DNA of 63,496 nucleotides, the filler included, from Licmophora abbreviata (taxonomy: Eukaryota), in NCBI GenBank assembly GCA_900291995.1. It is 11 parts of 11 records of this genome, joined end to end, with 100 filler letters (N's around TTAATTAATTAA, not from the genome) between each part and the next. Parts side by side here need not be neighbours in the genome. Positions count along the whole stretch, not along the records: positions 1 to 26,081 come from OLMU01005338.1; 10 more parts are not named here. One strand, given 5' to 3'. Both the position numbers and the translations under genes were made by a program. The notes beneath the pieces are model-generated. The model saw only the letters and a program-made list of their open reading frames with translations, did no database searches and was not told the DNA's origin. The number at the start of each line of letters is the position of its first letter. Position 1 is the first letter of the stretch. This document shows positions 12,067 to 28,520 of the stretch, piece by piece.

Positions 12067-12621
12067 GACACCGGTATGATACCTGGTAGGCCTACGAGCA
12101 CGGTAGGTACAGTGTCACTGAGTACTGACGTAGTTCCGACTTCAGTGCGTGCACAAGAGAAACGGGTAACACCTCGATTCTGACAGATTCCAGCTCAATC
12201 AAAGGACACAATGAGACTCTCCGAATCACAGAAAGACCTCAGCAATACCAGCGACAAGTTATACTGCTTCACACGTCGATACGATCGCGCTACTGGTACT
12301 ATCGTATGGTACTACTCGTAGTAGACTAGACGATGTTCAAATTGGTCTGCGCTGCCTCTTGTGAGCTGAGATTTAAATTGTTGCCATGCGAACTCCGAAA
12401 TGTCATGACGTTATCTACTTTTCAAACGGGCTTATCCGGGTTACGTGAGTGCCGCGTCGGTGCGGGGAGACGGCCAGACTTTCCCGTCTGGACGACGAAA
12501 GTTGAAAGTTGGATTGCAACTTCCGATCTTCCGATCTTTCATCCTTGATGTTTCATGTTTCCATGATATTTCGACTTTCACTGTAGTGGACGTTGCATTG
12601 CGCTGTTTCCATACAGAGAAA

Positions 12622-15271
12622 ATGGCATCCAGATGTACCACCGGGCAAGATGACTCACTCTCCCCCTCGTCCAAAAGGGCCAAGATGTCAGCCAATCTGT
12701 ACAGTGCTAGAGATACCGGTATCGCGATTGAGCCGGAAGAATTGCCTTCTGGACTTCGCGCGTGTCTCGCGTTGATCGAGACTTCCAGCGAACAGCCACT
12801 GCCGAACGTTCCGGGCAGTCTAACAACCTTCCAGACACAAAACAATCTCGGAAAATTGAAACAAGTCTTCGATGGGCATGGATTCCGAACGTCGGTTGTC
12901 ATGTCACCTCGCCTGGCGCTCTCAATCTACAAGGATTCTTGCAACCTCGATTCTGTGCCGAACGCGGAGGCCGACGCTCAGGTTGACGGAAAATCATTCC
13001 TTCTCATCGTCCTTGGATTGCATCCTCATCAAGATGAAATGGAAAAATGGTACGAGACGTGTGTCAAGAAGATATACTGTCTCTTACTATTCTGTAATCT
13101 GGTGCGAAAGCTCTGTCCGAGAGCTGCGTCGGAGGCGCTTGAAGACGCCATGCTGCGCGAGAGTGAGAACCTCAGCAGATCGATACTAACATTTAAGGGG
13201 AGGGTGGTCGATGAAGCTCGTCGGATTGCCTCGCTTGTACCCGATCGTGTAGCAAAACTTGCTTTAGTGGCTGTCGAGGCGGATCGACGCCTCCGTGTAG
13301 CCCAGTTTGAGCATGAGTTCAGGCGAATCATGTACCAAAACTCTTCCCTGTCCAACGCCATGCTCCAATTGTTTCTCGACGCCCATGATTGTTGCATCAA
13401 GGATGTATACTTTAAGCGCAGTCATGTCGAAAAGTATGAACGAATAACTGTATTTCTCTACGATCCCGAGGTTGACATGGCTCGCCCCTCGCGCTTCACG
13501 TTCTTGCCAGCAGCACGCTCAATGCTACGCGAAGGACCAGAATGCGTCGTCGGGTTGATGATCCAGTCCTTCTGGCGCTCAATGTTACGTCTTGGGTACC
13601 ACGCATCGTTGGTCGTCAAGGAGAAGCTTACCCCCGGACTCGAAAGGTATCTTCTTTCTGGTATTGCGCATGATCTTAAGGTTCCACTACTCTTGTAAGT
13701 GGACGAGTCGCGTCGATTTGACGCCGTATCTTTTCTATTTCTCGCGCCCTTTGCTAATGGCTCACACTCCTTCCCAACGTTGTAGAAACGCACATTTCGC
13801 ACCTACATACCCGTTATCATTCTACTTTGTTGGAAAGGCTGGATCCGGGAAATCGTCTCTCGTCAGAAACTTTTCGCCTGCTCTCAATACCGCCATTGAG
13901 GAGTACGCTGACCCAGCAATTCTGGTGCGATTCGTCAAGCAGAATCTGAATAAGCCATTGGAACAGCTGCACTTAGAACTTGAACTTCGTCCTAACAACA
14001 ACGATCTCAGTGTCATGAGCATCATTCAAGGGAGACGAATGACAATGGGCCAGAGCAAACCAGGCTTGGTCGTCGTCGACCTCGAAGAGATGGCAAGTAA
14101 CGAGCCCGACGCTGATCCGAACCAACTCGCGATAGCTAAACTGATTAGTCAGCGTTTCTCAGGGCGGAATGGAGACTATCAGGCTGGCGTTGTAGCGCCT
14201 CCTAGGAACTCTGCGAAGCGAGGTACGAACCTGTCGTAGGACGACGAGCCAAGTTGAAACGGTTGCTGCCGTGCTAACACATTCGTTTCTACCATGCCCT
14301 TTGCATATACCCTTAAAGGAATCAGTGGGGACGCTTCACTTATTGTTCTATTTACTTCTAACTACAGCTTGGATCTGACATGTGCAGATGCGCTCATGCG
14401 ACTGGACATGTTCTCTAATCTCAAGTCAGTGGAGATGCATGCTATCCACGGTAGCGACCGCCAAGCATTCGCGATCGCTTACCTGAACCAGTGTGTACAG
14501 GATCGATTCGACGATCTGGCGCCTCTCGTCCACTTGAGGCTTGACATTGCGCTTGGAGAAGGTGACACAAGGCCTCTAGTCCGTTTGCTTCGTATGTTGT
14601 CATTCTTCATTTGCCGTCTCGTGCAAAGTTCTGCTACCGTGGGCATGAAAGTTGAAGGCTCTGTCGAGCCCGACGAGAAAAGGTTCACAATCGTTTCCGT
14701 TTGTGGTCGCACGATCCGTTTGAGGTCGGACTCTCTTCAGAACTTGTATCCCGTTGTTCCACAGGAATGTGATCATCGAGTGCGGGAAGCCGTAACTGAA
14801 TTACGGGCGAGGATGGATGGAGCGTCCAAATCGGTTGACTTTGATGAGCTGTCTCAGATTCTTGACTTTTACTTTGCAAAGACGCTAGCGCCAACGGTGA
14901 TCTTGTCAAAAGACTCTAATATTTTACAGAAGATTGCGCAGTCCGTCGGAGCACGACCGGGGATCCATTCAATCGCAGCTGTTGATGTCAACAACTATAA
15001 ATTGATGAAGTCGCTGTACGACAAATGTGACACACCGAATTTAAGAGACGACATTTTGAAACTGGGCAAGGAAGCATTTGTTGTGGTCGAGCTTCATTGT
15101 CCAGATCGCGACTCGCAGCTCAAGATCCGGGAGCTAATTGAGGACAACCCTTCGATGACAGCGTGGTCAAGTAGCAGCTCGGCGTTGCTCAAGGGCGGGC
15201 TTTTGTTTTGCGTCCACGTCACCGGCGACATAACTCCCGAGGTTCTATCGCGTGCTTCGCTTGTCATTTGA
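12622..15271 (+). CDS. Uncharacterised P-loop/AAA+ ATPase with distant Lon-like ATPase module
   Basis: Three ORFs joined in frame by introns 13695-13785 and 14223-14318. Walker A GKAGSGKS, Walker B-like VVVDLEE, sensor-1-like VLFTSN. Confidence 0.6.
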
Positions 15272-15548
15272 TGGTGTCCGCCTTGCGCTACAGCGTCGTC
15301 GATGAGTGTGTCGCCGAGTAAATAGAACGTCGCTGCATGGCATGCGTGCATGCGCTGCTGTATGTTTCTTCTCGGCAGTCACGGTGTCGTACCAAGTAGT
15401 TCATTTTGCTGTGGCTACGAGTCGGTTAGAGGTACCCCTTTCGACAATAAGCTGATGTATTTTATTGTAGCTAAATACGATAGTCGATTATTGCTGCCCC
15501 CTTCGGAAACAATTACGGATAAAAGTGTGCTTTTCATTTGTGTATTGA

Positions 15549-18500
15549 TCAAGTGACGAGGAGTCCTATTCGATCCTCTTCAAAATCGTCCATCATTTGC
15601 ATGTTGTGCACGGCTTGGAAAGCGTCCGACCCGTCCGTACCAGCAAGCTCGTAGATTGATTCCGGACCAGCAGGGTGCTCTCTTGCAAAAGCTGTCAAAT
15701 CGTAAACCAAACCACCAATTGCAACCCAGCAATCGCTCGGGCTCCTGTGCTCGGCAAGCTCATCAAGCGTGACCTCACGATCATCGTTTGGGTCTTCCTT
15801 GACAATGTCTCTCTTGTAGACTCCGTTTTGGTCGACTGAAGGCCTTGAAGCGATAGGAATATTGTTTCCCACTATCGAGCCGAAGACAGTGCATTCCAGA
15901 AGAGAATTACCACCAAGGCGGTTGTTGCCGTGTACCCCTCCTGTAACTTCCCCAGCCGCGTGCAGCCCCGGCATGATCTTGCCTCTTTCGTCCAATACAT
16001 TGCCCGCGGTGTCGATCGTTATGCCACCCATGCAATAATGGAGAACAGGGATCACCTTTCCGGCGTAGAAAACTTCACTGTCCAAATCTTCCGAAGGCAC
16101 GCCACGAAAAGATGTCTTGCCCCACGAGTCGACGCCTTCTTGTGACGCTTGTCGATAATCTCGAAGAGAGGATCTTATCGTCTCTACGTCGACATCCATC
16201 CAATCGGCAAGCGCTGAGACACCAGACAGCTTTTTCATGAGATTTTTGTGAGTGTAAAGGTCGACGTGTTTCTTTCCGTCAAGCGCTGCCGACATGGAGA
16301 GCACCAATGAAAACGTCGGTATTTCGTTGTTAGAGTCCCAAGTTTTCGTTGCAGCATAATGCGCATCATGTGAAAGCATCGTGTCGGTAACGTATGCACG
16401 CGTCCCCAGCTCGTTGCAAAAGCTATAGCAGAACAAAACCATGCATGTGAGGATCCGATATCAGCCAGACGTGGTCACAACGAGAAAAAGGCGACCTTAA
16501 GCTCACCGTTTCCCTTCGTCATTCAGGAGAATGCCGCCGACACCTCGCATGAGCTCGGCCGCAAGAACTTTGGTCGGATTTGATGGGCAAGAAGGATCAA
16601 TCCATCCAGTAGGGTGTACCTGAACCTTATCCATGTCGACGGTACCGGCTCCAAGCGACTGCGCGAGAACGACGCCGTCCCCGGTCGAGAAGGCTCCGGC
16701 CGTTGCAGGCATGTTGAGAAGCTCCGGCCGATACTTCGCCAGCAGAGACCCATGGCTTCGGTCCGCCGCAAAGCCGCCTGTCGCTAGCACCACGTGCGCA
16801 GCCTGTTGCAGCTCCTTTCCATTGCCGGCATCGTATTCGACGCCAACGACTCTTCCTGTCTCGTCTCGAAGGAGTTGGTCAACGCGCGTGTCCACCATAA
16901 TCTTAACCTTTCCCGCTTTCTCATATGAGCGAACAGCCTTTTGTATCCCGTACATAATCTCAGCGCCAGCCATACCGTTACTAGGCCTATGGGTTCGTTT
17001 GTGTGAATGTCCACCGAGTTGCGCCAATAGCGAAAGATCGACACCTACACGGTCTTTCAGCCACATCACCGCCTTAGCGCTGTCGTTAACTAAGATGTCG
17101 ATGAGCTCTGGTTTCGCAGCTTCTCCCGCGGAGTTTATCGTGTCGTTCCGAAAGCTCTCGAGAGCGTCGAATGTGCGGTTGTCTGGGTTCCATGCGTTGA
17201 TGCCGGACGATGCCTTATTTGAGTTGCCGCCCATAAGGTGCTCTTTCTCCATGATAACAACATTCCCGCCTCGATCAAGAATGTTTAACGCAGCGGCAAG
17301 TCCAGCCAAACCGCTGCCAATGACTAGCGCATCCGGTTCGCCTCGTTTGAGACCCACGTCAATCGCTTGAGAAAAGGCAAGAAACTTCTCTGCGTCTCTT
17401 CCGTAATGCTTTGCGAGCACAAGAACGTCAGAATTTCGAGAGAGCGCTAAATGGATGAGCTCTGCCTCTCGAGGTTCGTCAATACGGCCTTCCCTAGCTA
17501 AAAAGGCGATCACGCCGATCGCGGTGTCGAGGAGATCAGTCGGCGATTCGGAAGCACCGAGTAAAACGGAATCTTTGACGGCGCCTCCGACGGAAGTGCC
17601 AGCTTCTCGATTCGCGTTCGAGTCCCAGTAAAGATGCGTCAATTCTCTTACCTCTCGGATTGACTCGGAAAACTTGGCAATTGTGTTCACAAAGGCTACG
17701 ATCTCATTTCGCTCGAGCGATGAAGCCAGACGATTCGGGCTCATAAATAGAATCTTCAGCGCAGTTCCGTATCCGAGCATTGCCATTTTCCCATGGAGCT
17801 TGCACTGCTGACACTGAACGCAGTCAAGAATCGATGAGCAGTTCTTGAAGACTCCCTTGAACGATCGTTTGAGCGAAACGATGTCTGATGTAGCCGACAC
17901 TTGCTCCTTGAACATTAGCGATTCGTCGAACGCCGAGAAGACGCTTTGACACGACTGGAGAATCGAGGAGTCAAGAAGTCTCTTCAAGAGAATAGCTGAT
18001 GTCTCGTCCTCCACAATGTCGCCAGTCCGAATTTCGTAATTGTGCAGCAAGGGTGAAGCTTTCTGCAGCGCTCGGAGTAGGACTACGTACGAGAAGTGAA
18101 GATTCCGGACATGCTCTGGGTTGTTCTCGAACTTTTCCATGAAATACTGAGGATTCGGTTCCCATCTGTCACGTCCCTTCCGCTTCGAGGGTGCATAATA
18201 ATTCTTGGCAATCGAAAGAGTTGTGGAAGTGTGGAGTCCGCTGAGAAGCCTGTACAGGACGCGTTCTTCATAACACATGTCCCCAGGAGCCCCATCAATA
18301 CAATTTTCTTCATAGATCGCATTCCAAATGTGTGTACCATTGTATCCAGTATTGCGCTCGGGGTTCAACGCGAGATTGACAACCTTTGTTGTTTCGCCGG
18401 CAGTGATGCTACTGCACATGTCAACCCAGAATGTATCAGGTAGAGTGTTCTCGTCACAACTAGCGTCGATGAAAGCACTTTCATCAGTCACGACAGGATC

Positions 18501-19271
18501 GGTCTTTTGTGACCAAGAGAAAGCATCTTTTTGAGCCTCAGACTCCCATCGTTGGAAGGGAAGCGACTGGAAGGCGGATGAGATAAGATCTTTGAGGGGC
18601 GTAGAGGACCCAAAGCCGTCATCTGTCAGAGAGCACAGCGGCGCAGCATCGCCATCATGATCTTGGTCCTCCCCATCACACTCATAGTTGCCTTTATCGC
18701 CAATTTGTTGCTCTGTCAGGTCAGACTTATCATCTAGTGAGGCGGTGAGTCCAGGCGCGGCGCCCAGTTGTCGTTGGAATGGAAAGTCTCCTTCCGTCCC
18801 GCCACTAACAGAACATGCAGGTTCCGCGTCGGGGTCCATGTCAGGCAGTCCGTTGCACGTTTTAGAATCGTCGGCATCCGTTGCGCTCTTCGGTTCGTCT
18901 TGAGATGTAGCAAAGGTGGTCTGTACTTTTTTTGATCCAGCTGTTTTGGACCAGGTCGAAATGGGGCAACGCTCGTCCAGGTCGACGACAAAGTGTCGGA
19001 AGAAAGCAGTCCGTACAAGCTCCTGGAGAATAGTGTGAAGCTGTGAGTCATTGGCTTGCTCTAGATCTTCCACGTTGCAAGAGAGATCATGGATCGGACC
19101 CTCTGGGACGAAGAGGGACGGCAATGAGGACGGAGGAGCTGCCAAGGCGAAACGTGCACGGGATAGGAGGCAGACGAGAATGCAAAGACCGAGAGGTAAT
19201 TTGTGATTTCTGCAATTTCGAGTCCATCGTTTCCGTCGCCGCCTTGCTATGAAATGTTGACCATCCATCAT
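15549..19271 (-). CDS. Ero1 / fumarate-reductase-type flavoprotein / cytochrome b5 fusion protein
   Basis: Ero1: NPERNTGY, IWNAIYEENC, YRLLSGLH, LDCVQCQQCKLHGK. Flavoprotein: GSGLAG, GGNSNKASSGINA, GGHSHKRTH, VQVHPTG, AELMRG, HYCMGG, GEVTGGVHGNNRLGGNSL. b5: CWVAI..VYDLT.F..HPAG...AGTD.S.AF..VH. One intron 16423-16506 inside the flavoprotein domain. Confidence 0.92.
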
Positions 19272-19493
19272 GAAAAACTCAGTGATGTGCACTTGTGAGT
19301 CCAGAAACACTCCAGAGACTCTAGGTCTTGTGAGAACTTGGCTGTTGTGAGACGAGACGAGATTATTTGTGTCCTTCTTCTACTTTCTCATCATCAAATT
19401 GAAACTCTTCCGAATTCCGCGATGACTTTTTTCTCTCTCTTCTTTGTCCACGCGTCAATTTTGCCATCATTTCGACTGACTGTGTGGGACTAG

Positions 19494-19515
19494 CTCGACT
19501 CGACTCGACTCGACT
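19494..19515. repeat. (CTCGA)n microsatellite in a divergent promoter
   Basis: ctcgactcgactcgactcgact. Confidence 0.75.
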
Positions 19516-19763
19516 AGTGACAAGAGTTTCAACGTCTGGCATTCCACCGAAAAATGAACGGCTGAGATGAGACGGCGATAGCGCGAGTGGCGCGAAAGAA
19601 GACGGCCAAAGTTCAAAGTTCGAGAGTTGAAAGTTGAGTCCGGTCGACATTTCGCATTGAAAAGGAAGCAAAGCACCAAGCACCGATAAAACACAATACC
19701 AACACAGTTGACTGTGAACCGAACGGGACGAAGAAACAAGAGCAAGAGAGAGAAACTTGAACA

Positions 19764-21962
19764 ATGGCTACGTCAGCGGAGGAAGCTATGGCTCGGGCGA
19801 AAGAGATAGCGGCTCGACTCTCCGGTTCGACTGCACCGCCGACTGCCGCTGAGCCACAGAGTGCCGGTAGCGGGAACGACGCGTCCTCCAGTTCGAGTAA
19901 ACGCAAGCGCTGGGGAATTACTCCCGATGCCGAGGGTGATGAGATCCTCCCAGGGCTCAGCGATGTCGCCAAGAAGCTGAAAGCAGGAGCGGAACCAATA
20001 CAGCGACGGGTGTGGGTCGAGACTTCACGCAAGCCAAATGCTCACTTTGTTGGCTTCATCAACGACGGTGACAAGCTGAACGCGATCCTCGAAAAGATAC
20101 CTGGAGGCGACAGTATTTCCATCCAGCTCAAGGGGCGAGGTACCAACCCCAATCCGATCCTCGGCATGCCCGAGGAGCCTTTGCATGTTCTGGTTGAGGG
20201 GTCTCCTGATCTTGTCACGAAAGCCGAAACTCTCATCGACAAACTAATCAGTGATGCGGAAGCTGCACCTCTACTGGAAGACGCCGCATCGATTGCTGAT
20301 AAAGCTGCCGATGCCCTTGCTGCTTCCATGGCCGGTGACACGGCGAATAATACTGCGAACTCAGTCGCTCCCGGATACAAACCAGCGCCAGTGGCTTCGC
20401 TTATCCACGGTAACCCCACTGGAGCTGGGATCTATGGCCCCGCTGGCGGAGAAATGCTCGAAGAGCAGATTGGGGTGCCAAACGGTGTCGTGGGGTATAT
20501 CATTGGTCGGGGAGGAGAAAACATTACCTCTATGCAAGGGCGAAGCGGATGTAAAATCCAAATCCAAAAAGAACATGAAATGCAGCCTGGGCAATCACAG
20601 CGAGTTATTACTTTGACGTCCTCCTCCAAGGAGGCTATTGACCAGTGCCGAGGGATGATAGAGGAAATGGTCTCGGAACGTATTCGAACAACTGGATCGT
20701 CTGTTTCTATGGCCAGTGCCATGGCCACACCAGCATTGGCCGGTTCAAACCATACGTCCAGACTGCAAGGCGCCGTCGCCTCGGGACACCAATTGATCAC
20801 TATGCAAGTACCTGATGGCGATGTTGGACTCATCATCGGCAGGGCCGGCGCCACAATCAAGAGCATTCAGGATAGAAGCGGTGCGAATATACAGATTCCC
20901 CAGGAGGCAGATTCCGACAACTCTTCAATTAGAACTGTCAGCATCACTCACCCTCACATGGAAGGGGCACACATGGCGAAACAGATCATTGAAGATATTC
21001 TGGCCAGCCAAGCCAATCGACCTGCACGAGTGCCCCATACGACGTTAGAACTTCCGGTGCGTATGTGCAGTATTTTCGTGGCTCGTTGGCGGTGTATGTT
21101 AGGTCATCACAACTCACACGTAGCGGCTGCGGTCGTTCTCTCCTAGATCCCTGATCAAGACGTGGGCTTGTGCATTGGTCGCGCAGGGTGTGTCATACGT
21201 GAGATGCAAAACAAGACTAGTACCAGGATCCAGATTCCCTCCATGTCGATGCCGGGATCGACGCACCGAATCGCTACAGTAACTGGTCCTGCCGAAGGCT
21301 GTAATCAGGTGAAGCAGATGATCGAACGTATCAGTCTTGAGCAGTCCTCTCAGAGCGTCATGGCAGGAACTGCTTACACGAATCAATCCGGTGGATATGG
21401 TGGCGCACAGCACGGCAGTGCATATGGCGGCGGGCAGTACTCGCAGCAGGCCTATGGGCAGCACGGGGGTGGTCAAAGAGACTATTCTGCGGAATGGGCT
21501 GCCTACTACGCTGCTCAGGGTGGCTCAAATGCGGTGACTGCCGCGGCGGCCAGTGCACCTGCTCCCGCCACGGCAATGGCGACGTCAGCTGGTACGCAGC
21601 AAGGTGCAGACGCTTACTATGAGCAATTCTTTCGGTACGCCTACTACTATGGCGATGAAGCGGCTCGAAAGTACTATGGTGCGTGGTCGCCCCCTGCAGG
21701 CACTCCCAATCCATACGGGACAAATCCTGCTGGGATTTCGGCTGCACCACCGGCAGCTGCATCGGCTGCGCCCGCTTCCGGCATGTCACAAGCTTCGAAT
21801 GGCTCTACTGTGCCACAGCAAGCCGCGGCTATCACTACACCAATCGCGTCGGCACCCGCAGTGGCATCCTTAGAACACGCGCCGGAGTCCGCTCGACCGC
21901 GGGATTCTGGGCGTCGAGGTGTGTCCAATTTGCCTGCTTGGATGACGAAGGGCCAGGGTTGA
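19764..21962 (+). CDS. FUBP/KHSRP-like KH-domain RNA-binding protein
   Basis: AMARAKEIAARL N-box; three GxxG KH domains (GYIIGRGG, GLIIGRAG, GLCIGRAG); DYSAEWAAYY motif. Intron 21057-21146. Confidence 0.85.
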
Positions 21963-22670: not shown

Positions 22671-24555
22671 TCATGCCCTCGGGTACTCTGTTGCGAGTTC
22701 AATGGCAGCCGATCGTTCCCGACCCACAGCCGTACGCTGTAGTTCCTGCAAGGCCTGTACCTCATCTTGTTGCTCCACGACACGTCGATCGTGCTCCTCC
22801 GCGACGCGAGCCAGCTCTTTCTTTCGCGCATCTAGGTCTATTTCGTTCATCAGTATCTCGGCGCCATCGCCAACACCGTAGTAAGACAGCGAGCGATCGT
22901 CATCCTCTAATGGTGAAGGGAAGGGGTCATTCTATGGCAGAAGGGAAATACAACAATAAGAATAAAAAAACAGCCCACCTATTCCAAATCAGGCACCATC
23001 GAAACACAGGACGCACCTCGACGCGAAAATGGAGAATTTGCAATTCAGGGTTCAATCCAAACGCCCGGAAGCACATTGCTTTGACTCGTCCTACTTTGAG
23101 GCCTCCGGGGAGCCTCTTGTGAAGCGGAGGCAAATTGCAGCTTGCCGATGCCATCGACATGACTTTAACACTGACTACGTGCTGAGCAACGCTTCCATGA
23201 GACAAAGCCAAGTCAGAATTCACCATCGTGTCCTTGTGTTTCGAGACGAGTTCCTGAAATCGCGCGTGGGAATTGATGACTGCCTCAGTCTGACTCGCAG
23301 CTTCAGTCGATGAAGCGATCAAGAGCTCCTTAGCCACGAAACTGATGTATCGACGCTCGGCCTCGATTCGCTCCTTGGATGATACTGGTGACGAATTCAG
23401 ATATTCAACGTTGGGGAGTCGAGCAATGATTAGTGCGCGCGACTCCGCAGCTCCCATTGTTGCCGAAAGTGGGGTATTTCGGAATCTGAGCGATACAAGC
23501 GATGGGAAAAAGGCAAGACCATCCAGCTCAAGCCAGGAAGAGATCAGGGTTCCAGACAGCTGTAGCAGTGAAAGGCTAGAAAATCCTCCCCTGGATTCGT
23601 CATTGTTGGGAAGGTGCTCGATGGGGTTGTCCTCCAGCAAGAGCTGCTCAAGGTTGGGAACCGCGCCGAGCCACTTCAAATGCTCACTCCAAGAGCCAAT
23701 CCGACAGTCAGAGAAGTCAAGGAAGCGTAGGCGATCGAACCCACAGATGGTCGAATTTTGTGGAAGACACGACATGTCGTTGTGCGCCACGCATAGCTCT
23801 TCAACGTTCGGTATGTAGCGGGCAATCCAAGGAAGCGTATTTGAAGAAAGCGAGCAGCGGTTGAGATTCAGAGTTCTGATTCGCACTAGACTGGAGCGAG
23901 GCACCAAGTCCAGTGGAATGTCACATAGACGATTTGATGCCAGGCTTAGGTGTTCCAGGAGCGGAAAGTTTACAAGGATCTTCACGACCTCGGTCCACTG
24001 GCTCAATAGATTGCCAGCTAGGTCGATATCCCGAAGGCCCACGAAGTCGACCAGACTCTCATCAGCAACGACACCGGAAATCCCCAAACTCCGCAGCGAG
24101 ATCTTGTCAAGATCTTGAAGCTGCTGTCGTGTTCGAATCTGGAGCTCACCGAGAAATTGAATGGGCTTCCCCCTTCCGCTCGCAGTTCGGGCCGAGTGGG
24201 GCAACACATTGTCCGGAGCAACGAGAGGTGCGTCTTGCGTGACGTATTTACTTTGCATGAGTTGGCGATTGAGCTTCGTGCCAAGATCTATCTTTTTGAG
24301 TCGCATGAACGAGCCGCCTTCGCAAGAGAAAAGCCGCACGAGCCGATTCGTTGTGCGACAAATGACAGAGCCATCGTGCTTCCCGCGTGACGCGTCGTCC
24401 CAGGCGATCCCAGCATAGATCTCGTCGGGATCTTTGGCACTTGGAACAGGACCAACGTACAGAACCGTCCCGACGAATCCGTCTCCGTCTCGTACGCGTG
24501 TCGAATTGACATGCAAACTACTTGCGATGCTATCGTTTGTTGCTTCGTTGGCCAT
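22671..24555 (-). CDS. TBCE: Tubulin-specific chaperone E
   Basis: CAP-Gly (GIAWDDASRGKHDG), LRRs, ERIEAERRY, ubiquitin-like C-terminus completed after an intron at about 22932-23016 (PLEDDDRSLSYYGV). Confidence 0.9.
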
Positions 24556-24813
24556 CGTCAGTCGACACTCTTCAGCTTGGTGAATGTTTGCAATTTTTTA
24601 GTTTTTCGTCACTTTTCTATCCTGAGTCGAGGCAGTCAAATTGCTAGTACCGGTAGGTATGATACCACAGAGCGCGGCATCTTCAATCTTGTCTGACCGG
24701 CACATTCGATATGCGCTGCAGATCCCGATGTCGATGCAGGCTGCAGCTACAGTTTCAATGCATAAGCTGCTGATTCTTTTATTGACAATCCCTTATAACC
24801 TACCTACCCCTTC

Positions 24814-25870: not shown

Positions 25871-26081
25871 GAACTCGGTATGTACAATCCCTAACAGCTG
25901 GGTTTGGGGTTCCCTGTCTATCCTCTGGATAACGTACCCCCATCTCTTGGTCTCGCCTTCACTTGAGAATTCAAATTTGAATCTCTCTTGACCATGACAG
26001 CCTTTCATAATTTCCTTTCTCTTAAAATAGTAGATTCAAAATCACTCTAGTATGATACTTTTCTGCCTGTGCCTTGTACGG

Positions 26082-26181
26082 NNNNNNNNNNNNNNNNNNN
26101 NNNNNNNNNNNNNNNNNNNNNNNNNTTAATTAATTAANNNNNNNNNNNNNNNNNNNNNNNNNNNNNNNNNNNNNNNNNNNN
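26082..26181. other. Artificial scaffold spacer (N-run/TTAATTAATTAA/N-run); also at 28759, 30576, 32627, 34162, 35578, 44976, 46577, 50157 and 61521
   Basis: Ten 100-nt blocks, each with a six-frame stop linker. Confidence 0.98.
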
Positions 26182-26408
26182 GGTGAATACCTGCTAGCTA
26201 AGTTAGAGAGGAAGGACGCACATGGTGGTAATCGGAGATTTACGATGGCGTATGCGCCACCACCTAGCTACCTGACCGTAGTGCCAGGTAGCTGCACCAC
26301 ATGCTGGATGTAGGCCAGTGTATTCGGGAGGGTGGGTGCTGCAGCGCGTGTCGCTAGCAGCGGGAGATTGTAGTGTTTTTTTTTGTAGTGTAGTGTGTTT
26401 TGGCGTAG

Positions 26409-27557
26409 TCAAAGCACAGGAGTAATAGGAACCTGTTGATTTGGCAATAGGGTGAAGGAGCCGCCTTGGAGCATGCGTCGGGCGAAGTTGCGCATGAGAG
26501 GTTCAGCTTGGACATGAAGGTACCGGAGCATTTCATCACTACGCCAGCGGCCGACAAGGCGGATGCGACTGGTATCGACGTCAGCGCAGAGCAGTGCCAT
26601 GGCGCCGCCGGCTCGTAAGGAGCGTGCGGTAATGTCGGTCGGAAGGAAACCCACGGAAGGCCCCACAACAGTTGTACTGGTACGAAGTGCTGTAGTGATA
26701 TCCTTGGGGGTGACCGGGTGGCGGCGACCGTGTTCGAAGTAGGTCGCCAAGGGTGTGTCAAGGGTGGCTGTGGATTGGCGCAGGTGAGCGACGCGACGGG
26801 TGAGAGCGAGGACGGGACACAGAAGTGGCTCGCCGCTGCGACCCAGACCGATGACCTCGTTGCGCACACCGTTCTTTTGCGTAGTGAAGGTGAGCGTGGC
26901 AAAGGTGACTCGGCCTAGGTCGGGGATTGGGATGGTCGCTGCTTGATGCCGCTGTCGGCCGATCCAGAACTGGACGTCTTGGAGGGTGAAAGGTGTGGTG
27001 TCAGACGGGGCGCCAGTGTACTCGCCGGGCCGGAGGAGAAAGAAGAAGGCCAGGACGATCATGTCGGCGATCGCTTGGTTACCTGGAGATTCATTGGCGA
27101 AGGCGACGTTGAGCACATGACGGACAATTTGGATGGGAATCGGTTTTACCCGATCAGGAGGAGGGTCTTGGCGTTTGTAACCGGCTAGCTGACGTTGGAG
27201 CCGGAAATCTAATTTGCCGAAAGTGTTGAGGCGCGGGTCCGGGGCCCCCATGGACGCGAAGTTTTGACCGACCGCCCGTATGGAGTCCTCCACCGTTCGA
27301 GCTCGGACTGGTTGGTGACGGGGGGCAATGTCGCCAGTTCGGTAGCGGTGCATGTAGACTTGGAGAAGGGTGGTCGGGTCTTCGATTTCCGTGAGGGATG
27401 GATCCAGGTGGAGGGACTGGCAAAAGTTGGTCCAGGTGCGCCAGTGGGAGTCGGCGGCGCTGGCGCGTGAAGAAACGACGCCGGATCGGGCCGCTTTCGT
27501 CGCAGCGCGGAGATCGTGGCGAAAAGCATCGCGGAGGTTGGCTGGTAGAGCTGCCAC
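26409..27557 (-). CDS. Tyrosine recombinase of a DIRS-like element
   Basis: FFFLLRPGEY, TQKNG, LLCPV.AL, ARSLRAGGAMAL, GRWRSDEMLRYL. The ORF begins at a non-ATG codon. Confidence 0.88.
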   Translation of the reverse strand: MAALPANLRDAFRHDLRAATKAARSGVVSSRASAADSHWRTWTNFCQSLHLDPSLTEIEDPTTLLQVYMHRYRTGDIAPRHQPVRARTVEDSIRAVGQNFASMGAPDPRLNTFGKLDFRLQRQLAGYKRQDPPPDRVKPIPIQIVRHVLNVAFANESPGNQAIADMIVLAFFFLLRPGEYTGAPSDTTPFTLQDVQFWIGRQRHQAATIPIPDLGRVTFATLTFTTQKNGVRNEVIGLGRSGEPLLCPVLALTRRVAHLRQSTATLDTPLATYFEHGRRHPVTPKDITTALRTSTTVVGPSVGFLPTDITARSLRAGGAMALLCADVDTSRIRLVGRWRSDEMLRYLHVQAEPLMRNFARRMLQGGSFTLLPNQQVPITPVL

Positions 27558-27797
27558 GGGAGGCGCTGCGGGTAGTGGACATCAAAATGTGTTAGTAACG
27601 CTTCGTCAGTCAGGTGCCACAACCGGGACGCATCATCGGCCATGGCGTTGAGGGGACCGGGGAGATAAGACAGCGTCGGGACATAGCGGTGGTATCGTTG
27701 GTGAAGCGCTTGGAGCCGGAGCAAGTAGGCGGCGGCAGCGTTCGTGGAGATGGATCCCCGCCGGTGCCAGTGGTAGGCTGGAGTATTGTCGGTACTG
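27209..27797 (-). pseudogene. C-terminal fragment of retroelement pol (RNase H)
   Basis: TDNTPAYHW..RGS...LLRLQAL...YLPGPLNAMADDASRL, typical of the DIRS RNase H end; truncated upstream. Confidence 0.72.
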
Positions 27798-28520
27798 GCC
27801 CTTCTTGATCACACCGCACAGCACACATCATCATGACCAGCAATGTCCGACAGACGAATGTATCTCTCGATCCATCTCTCTATCTGTTGACCCCAAGAAA
27901 GAGAGCCATTCCTTTTGTTTCCGCCTCGTTTTGTAACGCTAGCGTCTGACAGTCACGCATCAAGTGATGCGGGAACGAATGACTCGTGACTCAAGGAACG
28001 TCGGCGGCCAGTGACTCGCCAATGACTGCCCTGCGCGCGACTACACTTTTGAACCCAACACTCACAATCAACAATCCACCAGAGGAAGTCATCACGTCGT
28101 CGTCGTCTATCGACCCTGTGTGTGTTAGTCTTCTGACGTTACAGTTTGTCGTTCGACGATCACCTCGTCATTGTCACAAACAAACAGTGACGATCGAGTG
28201 AAATGTGAAATGCCCCGCGCGCGCGATCCGCGATCTAGTCGAGCTTTTAGTCGCGGTTCACGCCGGCCCGTCGTCGCGCCACGTACGTACGTATGAATTA
28301 GTATGCTTTTACGTACTACTCAGAGTAATGTGGAAGGTCAATGTACCACGCACTATCGTACGAAAGACGAAAGGAAAACAGCAGCAACATCACGCAACGG
28401 CGTTCCGAATGGATGGATGGATTCATTCGGATCCAAGACAACACATTTTTTTTTTCTTTCACTTACTTTGGATTCTTTCACTTTGATCTAATAACTGTAT
28501 CAGCACTCTGCTCCAACAGC

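Follow-up and report, generated by a model that had tools for sequence, protein, structure and literature searches.

Can a single polypeptide pay for protein disulfide formation by reducing fumarate? The question is raised by a minus-strand gene at positions 15549–19271 of the DNA analysed here, a stretch of 63,496 nucleotides of Licmophora abbreviata (GCA_900291995.1) that we call the window and that consists of 11 parts of 11 records joined through filler; the gene lies in the part from OLMU01005338.1 (positions 1–26,081). An earlier note on this DNA had proposed that the gene fuses Ero1, a fumarate reductase (FRD) and cytochrome b5 into one O2-independent disulfide relay. We find the fusion to be intact, with a Pfam scan returning ERO1, FAD_binding_2 and Cyt-b5 together and an architecture search uncovering a family across eukaryotes. 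From sequence comparison, we consider it probable that the protein acts overall as a protein-dithiol:fumarate oxidoreductase of the secretory pathway, most likely in the lumen of the endoplasmic reticulum (ER), and are less confident of the role of its b5 domain than of this overall coupling.

On the minus strand, positions 15549–19379 contain two long stop-free frames, 16503..19379 (958 amino acids) and 15549..16460 (303 amino acids). The first ATG of the gene is at 19271, with no in-frame ATG further 5′, and the coding region consists of two exons, 19271–16507 and 16422–15552, separated by an 84-nt GT..AG intron. Exon 1 (16507..19271), defined by the open frame, first ATG, splice site and Pfam matches, runs from Met1 through the second base of codon 922 and encodes the signal peptide, the Ero1 domain, the linker and the first two thirds of the FRD. 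Exon 2 (15549..16422), defined by open frame, Pfam matches and splice site, encodes the C-terminal third of the FRD and the b5 domain (coding 16422–15552, stop 15549–15551). The intron (16423..16506; GTGAGC...TATAG) splits the codon of Arg922 (CG|C), the conserved arginine of the RFCNE motif, and the residues that span the splice (...DEGKR|FCNELGTR...) are near-invariant among 79 aligned full-length relatives, which confirms the gene model. The spliced coding sequence of 3639 nt has one stop, at its end, and yields a protein of 1212 amino acids with the order signal peptide, full Ero1, four-helix linker (LINK), Osm1-type FRD and cytochrome b5. Since ERO1 and FAD_binding_2 both start in the exon-1 frame, the Ero1–flavoprotein junction needs no splice prediction; the N count within 15000–20000 is 0.

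The earlier note had described a single frame carrying leader, full Ero1, linker and flavoprotein, a gap-free junction inside an exon, an 84-nt intron, a CVQCQQC active site near 17802–17822 and a b5 domain with both haem histidines. Open frame, Pfam and N count bear out the frame and the junction; the intron is found at 16506..16423 with its flanking residues kept in the 79 relatives; the position of the active site proved exact (residues 484–490); and the PF00173 match and its invariant histidines support the b5 domain. Its statement that the characteristic flavoprotein motifs follow the intron needs correction: all are present, and HYCMGG and NRLGGNSL are indeed in exon 2, but HPTG and ExxRG lie 5′ of the intron. 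A single sequencing run (share 0.06) gave two short contigs in the Ero1 exon (17759–17914 and 18268–18450) and none over the Ero1–FRD junction or the intron, and is uninformative on expression.

The Ero1 domain (residues 77–541; 17649..19043, minus strand) matches PF04137 along its entire profile (1–354 of 354) with an E-value of 3e-83 and 280.2 bits against a cut-off of 27. Among solved structures it matches yeast Ero1p (1RP4, E 5e-41) over chain residues 81–382 of 389, which correspond at the level of homology rather than contact by contact to the solved helical FAD-binding core. The active site, C484-V-Q-C487-Q-Q-C490 (17802..17822, minus strand), aligns with CVQCDRC of Ero1p, and its CxxCxxC pattern is invariant in both our 79-sequence and our 62-sequence alignments. 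The first helix of the domain ends at C102 and is followed by an acidic, cysteine-bearing loop insert (residues 108–290; 18402..18950, minus strand) with 37 aspartate or glutamate and 12 lysine or arginine residues. The loop contains C139-x13-C153 and C198-x14-C213, both conserved pairs and candidate shuttle disulfides by their sequence, together with C272-x13-C286; its equivalent is disordered in the AlphaFold2 model of the orthologue P0162 described below.

Between Ero1 and the reductase lies LINK, about 80 amino acids (17352..17594, minus strand), which our own hidden Markov model (HMM) finds in most fusions. LINK has no Pfam family, and its best structural match among 48,161 chains (Z 6.3) is generically helical and allows no fold assignment. 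FAD_binding_2 (PF00890) then begins at residue 647, with profile positions 1–286 of 414 in the exon-1 frame (E 8e-48) and 287–414 of 414 in the exon-2 frame (E 7e-22), so that the domain is complete across both exons. Its N-terminal part (residues 647–921; 16507..17333, minus strand) holds a GSGLAG dinucleotide fold, HPTG (16605–16616) and ELMRG (16542–16556), and its C-terminal part (residues 922–1110; 15858..16422, minus strand) holds RFCNE, HYCMGG with His1050 and NRLGGNSL with Arg1090; in protein numbering the motifs begin at residues 886 (HPTG), 906 (ELMRG), 922 (RFCNE), 1050 (HYCMGG) and 1089 (NRLGGNSL). These catalytic and substrate motifs align to those of yeast Osm1 and Shewanella Fcc3 and are invariant or nearly so in relatives. 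In Fcc3 the catalytic and substrate residues are His365, Glu378, Arg381, Arg402, His504/505 and Arg545. The positions altered in the Fcc3 mutants H365A, E378D, R381K, R402A and H505A, as named in structure entry titles, are kept in the window protein, as is the NRLGG arginine. The closest solved relative of the flavoprotein is Osm1 (5GLG/5ZYN/6KU6, E 3e-56), followed by the Shewanella flavocytochromes c3 (E 1e-34 to 1e-29); exon 2 matches Fcc3 and Osm1 at an E-value of about 1e-21 and b5 chains at 1.5e-12.

After a variable spacer of about 30 amino acids comes the cytochrome b5 domain (residues 1140–1200; 15588..15770, minus strand; PF00173 E 2.8e-18, 66.1 bits against a cut-off of 23.7). Its haem ligands, His1171 in HPAG (15675–15677) and His1194 (15606–15608), are both invariant in the alignments. 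The 1212-residue protein contains no CxxCH c-type haem motif, and the label 'flavocytochrome c' that one source gives is therefore inaccurate. Its Pfam matches consist of ERO1, FAD-family and Cyt-b5 models alone, with no NAD(P)H-binding or b5-reductase domain among them.

The N-terminal leader (residues 1–45; 19137..19271, minus strand) has a basic stretch and then a hydrophobic core at residues 25–43, and is predicted to be a signal peptide or signal anchor. Apart from the Rossmann motif this core is the sole hydrophobic 19-mer of the protein, which has no further membrane segment, and complete orthologues begin with typical signal peptides. From these features we infer a location in the ER or secretory lumen, most likely the ER lumen. 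A Phaeodactylum tricornutum 'fumarate reductase flavoprotein' (B7FVF5) is reported in PMC8678454 as N-glycosylated at four sites; its relation to the fusion family is not established and it carries no weight in this assignment. The B7FVF5 peptide was absent from the 140 proteins with which we compared it, and one supplement file of PMC8678454 contained neither conserved family peptides nor the words ERO1 or oxidoreductin.

For structure prediction we used the compact orthologue P0162 (1004 amino acids) rather than the window protein, with an alignment of 62 sequences. The AlphaFold2 model has a mean predicted local distance difference test score (pLDDT) of 81.5, with confident Ero1, LINK, FRD and b5 domains. 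LINK forms four confident helices (pLDDT 85.6), and residues 914–929, the linker before b5, fall below a pLDDT of 50. In a Foldseek search with this model the best match was Osm1 (5GLG; template modelling score 0.88, root-mean-square deviation 2.2 Å over 468 columns, 37% identity).

We then asked how widely the architecture occurs. With exon 1 as query, 484 proteins among 8000 scored candidates matched at E ≤ 1e-3, with a top identity of 72%. By our own domain HMMs, ERO1, LINK and FRD are present in 120/120 of the matches listed and b5 as well in 84/120; the 36/120 without b5 include open reading frames (ORFs) of about 900 amino acids (for example P0001, P0003 and P0004), which look like calls of exon 1 only and would fit a shared intron. 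All named proteins among the listed exon-1 matches are from diatoms (Skeletonema, Thalassiosira, Cyclotella, Stephanodiscus, Mediolabrus, Detonula, Asterionellopsis, Leptocylindrus and Fistulifera). Several relatives are MMETSP transcript ORFs marked 'type:complete', which places the three domains on one mRNA in those relatives.

The Ero1 domain alone, run against 1.84 billion representatives without a word index, matched 2043 proteins at E ≤ 1e-3. The best 150 of these comprise 47 with FRD, 5 with LINK only and 98 with ERO1 only, and the fusions reach down to 34% identity. Named carriers include Chromera velia and Amoebophrya sp., as well as Guillardia theta, Prasinococcus, Mesostigma, Hondaea, Mucochytrium, Norrisiella, Diplonema papillatum and the diatom Mayamaea. 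A 134-member cluster of proteins of 1153–1293 amino acids includes a partial model from Ostreococcus lucimarinus that covers FRD and b5 only. With P0161 as query, PF04137 and PF00890 occur together in 120/120 listed matches; 12/12 further full-length proteins drawn from that list, 8 of them from named taxa that are diatom or non-diatom, have all four modules and all seven motifs, and most of the 12 begin with a signal-peptide-like leader. In the full-length proteins of the diatom set, CxxCxxC, HPT, ExxRG, HYxMGG and HPxG are each found in 84/84, RFxNE in 82/84 and NRLGG in 79/84. These motifs are invariant or nearly so in the 79-sequence alignment, and the more diverse 62-sequence alignment has the same invariant residues, and our HMMs find the order Ero1–LINK–FRD–b5 kept from diatoms to Diplonema. 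This conservation argues that the fusion is under selection as a unit and that the window gene has nothing unusual about it within a large family spanning eukaryotic supergroups, heterotrophs and a parasite included.

To place the Ero1 domain we built three unrooted trees: a FastTree tree of 98 rows and 384 columns, and two quick IQ-TREE trees, one of 66 rows and one of 78 rows and 383 columns. The rows comprised every fusion whose Ero1 domain reaches 300 amino acids and all named stand-alone proteins, with the first 28 (FastTree) or first 10 (both IQ-TREE trees) unnamed stand-alone representatives; rows labelled 'trunc?' or shorter than 300 amino acids were dropped. All three trees separate stand-alone Ero1 from a side that holds every fusion with 100% support (SH-aLRT in IQ-TREE). 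The stand-alone side includes fungi, Sphagnum, Aphanomyces, Nannochloropsis, Chrysophaeum, a chrysophyte and others. In the 78-row tree the fusion side has 52 rows, 50 of which are fusions, and the window sequence groups with the diatom fusions. The two non-fusion rows are a 496-residue transcript ORF from Corethron and a 682-residue gene model from Bigelowiella. We rejected both as unfused Ero1 proteins and read them as truncated: the Corethron ORF ends in sequence like the start of LINK, and the Bigelowiella model is sister to the Norrisiella fusion. P0167 was likewise rejected as an unfused Ero1, since its 90% cluster includes a fusion of 1211 amino acids, and so were several metagenome ORFs that end in low-complexity tails. 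Within the fusion side, diatoms, chlorarachniophytes, labyrinthulomycetes and green algae each cluster together, a grouping that fits, without proving, an old and mostly vertical inheritance of the fusion.

The cysteines that precede the structural pair follow the same division. Stand-alone rows that could be parsed are mostly C-x8/9-C-x4-C, whereas none of the parsed fusion-side rows has that spacing (about half of the rows escape the simple pattern used); parsed fusion-side rows have loops of C-x10 to x38-C instead. One such C-x10-38-C pair is present in most non-diatom fusions and in some diatoms (Fistulifera and Leptocylindrus), two in the window protein, Asterionellopsis and Thalassiosirales, and three in one representative (P0142). 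This variation in loop number looks, in sequence, like tandem duplication of a shuttle arm. By these comparisons the Ero1 part is not a normal Ero1: it falls in a clade of its own, in which no parsed row shows the C-x4-C shuttle motif.

We also searched with a stand-alone ochrophyte Ero1 (P0250). Its 120 listed matches have PF04137 and none has an FRD or b5 family; two chytrid models among them also have PF03725 and PF01138. The matches come from fungi, plants, oomycetes, Nannochloropsis, Chrysophaeum, Aureococcus and others, with no named diatom among those listed. No genus is named in both the stand-alone and the fusion lists, which hints, without showing it, that the fusion serves as the Ero1, perhaps the main one, in those lineages that carry it. 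A search of the ESM Atlas with the Ero1 domain returned generic ERO1 clusters alone (0.83–0.85) and is uninformative on stand-alone diatom Ero1.

How might such a protein work? By homology and conserved residues, the Ero1 module would take electrons from a PDI-type partner through the loop cysteines and the CxxCxxC/FAD centre, and would hand them within the polypeptide to the Osm1-type FRD, instead of or besides O2. Transfer to the FRD flavin could be direct, flavin to flavin, or could pass through the C-terminal b5 haem, and the FRD module, with all its catalytic motifs conserved, would reduce fumarate to succinate. The fumarate/succinate couple lies at about +30 mV and the PDI dithiol/disulfide couple at about −180 mV, so that electron flow from dithiols to fumarate is downhill. 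The nearest named FRD–b5 clusters are fungal FAD_binding_2 and Cyt-b5 proteins; as a lead, the FRD–b5 part thus seems to have existed as a unit beforehand, one whose haem plausibly passes electrons to the flavin.

The precedent comes from yeast, and the link to Osm1 that the earlier note had drawn is strengthened by our structural matches: the best solved relative of the flavoprotein is the very enzyme that, in passages of Kim et al. 2018 (PMC6242907), is shown to re-oxidise Ero1 anaerobically. According to those passages, Osm1 is partly ER-resident, and Ero1, Osm1 and fumarate together support anaerobic disulfide formation and thiol oxidation in vitro. The Ero1–Osm1 contact is weak, with a dissociation constant (Kd) of about 150–200 µM, and docking put Ero1 at the site that the N-terminal haem domain occupies in Fcc3 (PMC6242907). 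The fusion would then be a covalent tether that replaces this weak bimolecular contact. The same passages describe a second pocket of Osm1 that also accepts electrons from free flavin (PMC6242907). By alignments mapped by hand, 4/9 residues of this pocket (K76, S78, P162, W295, F297, L298, N359, F362 and Y363) are kept in the window protein, where the equivalents are K, S, a gap (P162), T900, V902, L903, H974, L977 and Y978; T900 and V902, at the positions of Osm1 W295 and F297, vary among diatoms. The free-flavin route is therefore probably not applicable, and a tethered direct or haem-mediated route is more likely.

Besides this partial loss of the flavin pocket, several observations weigh against a dithiol:fumarate oxidoreductase of the ER. 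The loop cysteines differ from the canonical C-x4-C of yeast and human Ero1, so that something other than a classical PDI may be the source of the thiols. None of the 46 C-termini inspected, that of the window protein included, has a KDEL-type tail, and ER retention would need other means. The P0162 model has a predicted template modelling score (pTM) of 0.55, which makes the mutual placement of its domains low-confidence. Typical b5 potentials are near 0 mV, above those of soluble-FRD flavins, which makes b5 an awkward intermediate. Fumarate would also have to find a way into the ER lumen, as it would in yeast.

The chief alternative is that the domains are merely co-localised: the FRD–b5 part would receive its electrons from elsewhere (NADH, free flavin or a separate reductase), Ero1 would be a normal O2-dependent oxidase, and the fusion would serve targeting or stoichiometry. 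Database names of members include 'fumarate reductase (NADH)', the fungal stand-alone FRD–b5 proteins do without Ero1 (again as a lead), and the low pTM leaves the domain geometry uncertain, all of which speaks for this explanation. No such enzyme is known to take electrons from NADH within the ER lumen, and the Pfam matches of the window protein offer no NAD(P)H-binding or b5-reductase domain that would accept it. Retention of LINK and of the Ero1–LINK–FRD–b5 order from diatoms to Diplonema goes beyond what targeting needs, and yeast Ero1 and Osm1 do exchange electrons (PMC6242907). We consider mere co-localisation unlikely.

A second alternative keeps the wiring from dithiols to fumarate and changes the role of the haem, which would be an exit or entry port to an external partner, or would tune or regulate the enzyme, with fumarate as one of several sinks. 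The position of b5 at the far C terminus, behind the low-confidence linker (P0162 residues 914–929), would suit such a port; transfer between proteins is common for b5 domains, as in flavocytochrome b2, and the b5 potentials given above exceed those of FRD flavins. No candidate partner is known, however, and b5 stands beside FRD in 84/120 listed matches and in all named full-length members, as it does in the fungal FRD–b5 proteins, which fits a haem that serves the FRD flavin. A b5 port seems to us less probable still than co-localisation.

It is also conceivable that the substrate of the flavoprotein is an enoate other than fumarate, for example urocanate, acrylate or a further unsaturated acid. 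Closely related to it is urocanate reductase, in sequence (E 6e-33) and, through the P0162 model, in structure (6T85/6T86, E about 1e-31 to 1e-32). The best alignments are nevertheless to Osm1 and Fcc3, and the catalytic positions, the NRLGG arginine among them, are kept; we regard a different substrate as improbable. That the gene is a chimaeric assembly, or a read-through of two adjoining genes, is effectively refuted by a junction that lies in one uninterrupted exon without N and recurs in hundreds of independent proteins, transcript ORFs included, from many lineages.

The occurrence of the family in heterotrophs (Hondaea, Mucochytrium and Diplonema) and in a parasite (Amoebophrya) makes a role limited to algal dark anoxia unlikely, and a general O2-sparing or peroxide-sparing role fits better. 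A bolder proposal goes further than the dithiol:fumarate oxidoreductase that we favour. In it the fusions are an ancient second Ero1 lineage and the only ER sulfhydryl oxidase of diatoms, prasinophytes, cryptophytes, labyrinthulomycetes, chromerids and diplonemids; an internal FAD–haem–FAD chain would tie oxidative folding to fumarate and make it largely O2-independent and H2O2-free, and the lengthened and in some cases duplicated cysteine loops would be a new kind of shuttle arm. We hold this full proposal tentatively and think it doubtful; were it true, a large share of marine primary producers would fold proteins with fumarate as sink.

The favoured reading matters on several counts. On how eukaryotes form disulfides without O2, and how they restrain the peroxide made by Ero1, the sole source is a single study in yeast, of two proteins that bind each other weakly; a natural fusion conserved across several supergroups is independent 'Rosetta-stone' support for the Ero1–Osm1 pathway, and a single polypeptide lets the pathway be measured, as thiol oxidation against succinate against H2O2. 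Should the fusion prove to be the chief Ero1 in diatoms and picoprasinophytes, this would matter for how these bloom-formers survive in dark hypoxic water and sediment, for redox processes in the ER of algae that serve as protein producers, and for annotation. Fusions now appear in databases as 'hypothetical protein', 'flavocytochrome c', 'Cytochrome b5 haem-binding domain-containing protein', 'fumarate reductase (NADH)' and 'Fumarate reductase', and the Hondaea fusion as 'Succinate dehydrogenase ubiquinone flavoprotein subunit 1, mitochondrial'. Public models split, truncate and misname the family (P0302, P0166 and P0471), with Ostreococcus lucimarinus reduced to FRD and b5 and Bigelowiella natans to Ero1.

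The earlier note knew of no characterised protein of this architecture. We found no description of a natural Ero1–fumarate reductase fusion in open PMC papers (8.1 million) and preprints (0.36 million), a scope outside which subscription journals and architecture databases lie. The fusion goes unmentioned in the searched passages of Kim 2018 (PMC6242907) and Ugalde 2022 (PMC9516139), and passages of diatom anoxia and proteomics papers (PMC10407231 and PMC5599023) mention respiratory-type fumarate reductase alone. To that extent the claim stands, but hundreds of database proteins share the architecture and the window gene is no singular invention. The family is seemingly uncharacterised, and is a b5-equipped, fused form of the yeast Ero1–Osm1 system built on a distinct Ero1 lineage.

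Around the fusion gene, some 490 bp separate its ATG from a divergent upstream neighbour on the plus strand (19761–21962). This neighbour has multiple KH_1 matches and a weak FUBP_C match in two adjacent frames and is, from these domains, predicted to be a far-upstream-element-binding-protein-like RNA- or single-stranded-DNA-binding protein. An ORF at 22930–24597 (minus strand) combines an N-terminal CAP-Gly domain with leucine-rich repeats, an architecture that we take to be like that of tubulin-folding cofactor E. Just downstream of the fusion gene are open frames of 429 and 337 amino acids (12409–13695 and 14258–15268, both plus strand), neither of which matches a Pfam family at E ≤ 0.001. 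Ten pairs of 44-base N runs with 12 bases between them (for example 26082–26125 and 26138–26181), 880 N in all, lie within 26082–61620, none of them near the fusion gene. A spike in GC skew (0.21, against |0.09| or less elsewhere) at 26001–28000 adjoins the first N-run pair.

Among known systems, yeast Ero1p with Osm1 is alike in both catalytic modules and in the proposed chemistry, in which the reduction of fumarate pays for the oxidation of thiols; there the two are separate proteins, whereas here they are fused through a conserved four-helix linker and b5 is added. Kim et al. (PMC6242907) describe Osm1 as lacking a haem domain, and the fusion has b5. Relative to Osm1 the window protein keeps 4/9 residues of the free-flavin pocket, and relative to Ero1p its loop has C-x13/14-C in place of C-x4-C. 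Canonical Ero1 proteins (yeast Ero1p, human Ero1-alpha and plant ERO1/2) share the full PF04137 domain, CxxCxxC, the helical FAD core and the signal peptide; the fusions differ in forming a separate clade (100%), in their long acidic loop with one to three C-x10-38-C pairs, in the roughly 670 added residues of LINK–FRD–b5, and in an acceptor presumed to be fumarate rather than only O2. Shewanella Fcc3 is alike in its soluble FRD, its N-terminally fused electron-input domain and its catalytic residues, but its input is a tetrahaem cytochrome c, in place of which the fusion has Ero1, with a b5-type haem at the C terminus. The fungal FAD_binding_2 and Cyt-b5 proteins of 588–659 amino acids ('Osmotic growth protein' and 'fumarate reductase (NADH)' clusters) appear to have the same FRD–b5 unit, on a feature score of 0.97–0.98 that is a lead and not an alignment, and lack both Ero1 and LINK. 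Flavocytochrome b2, the yeast L-lactate dehydrogenase, likewise fuses b5 (match E 2e-10) to a flavoenzyme and transfers electrons between flavin and haem, but it belongs to another flavoprotein family (an FMN TIM barrel) and its haem is the exit to cytochrome c. The archaeal thiol:fumarate reductase carries out the same type of reaction, from thiols to disulfide with fumarate as acceptor, but does so with unrelated subunits and with coenzyme M and coenzyme B as its thiols.

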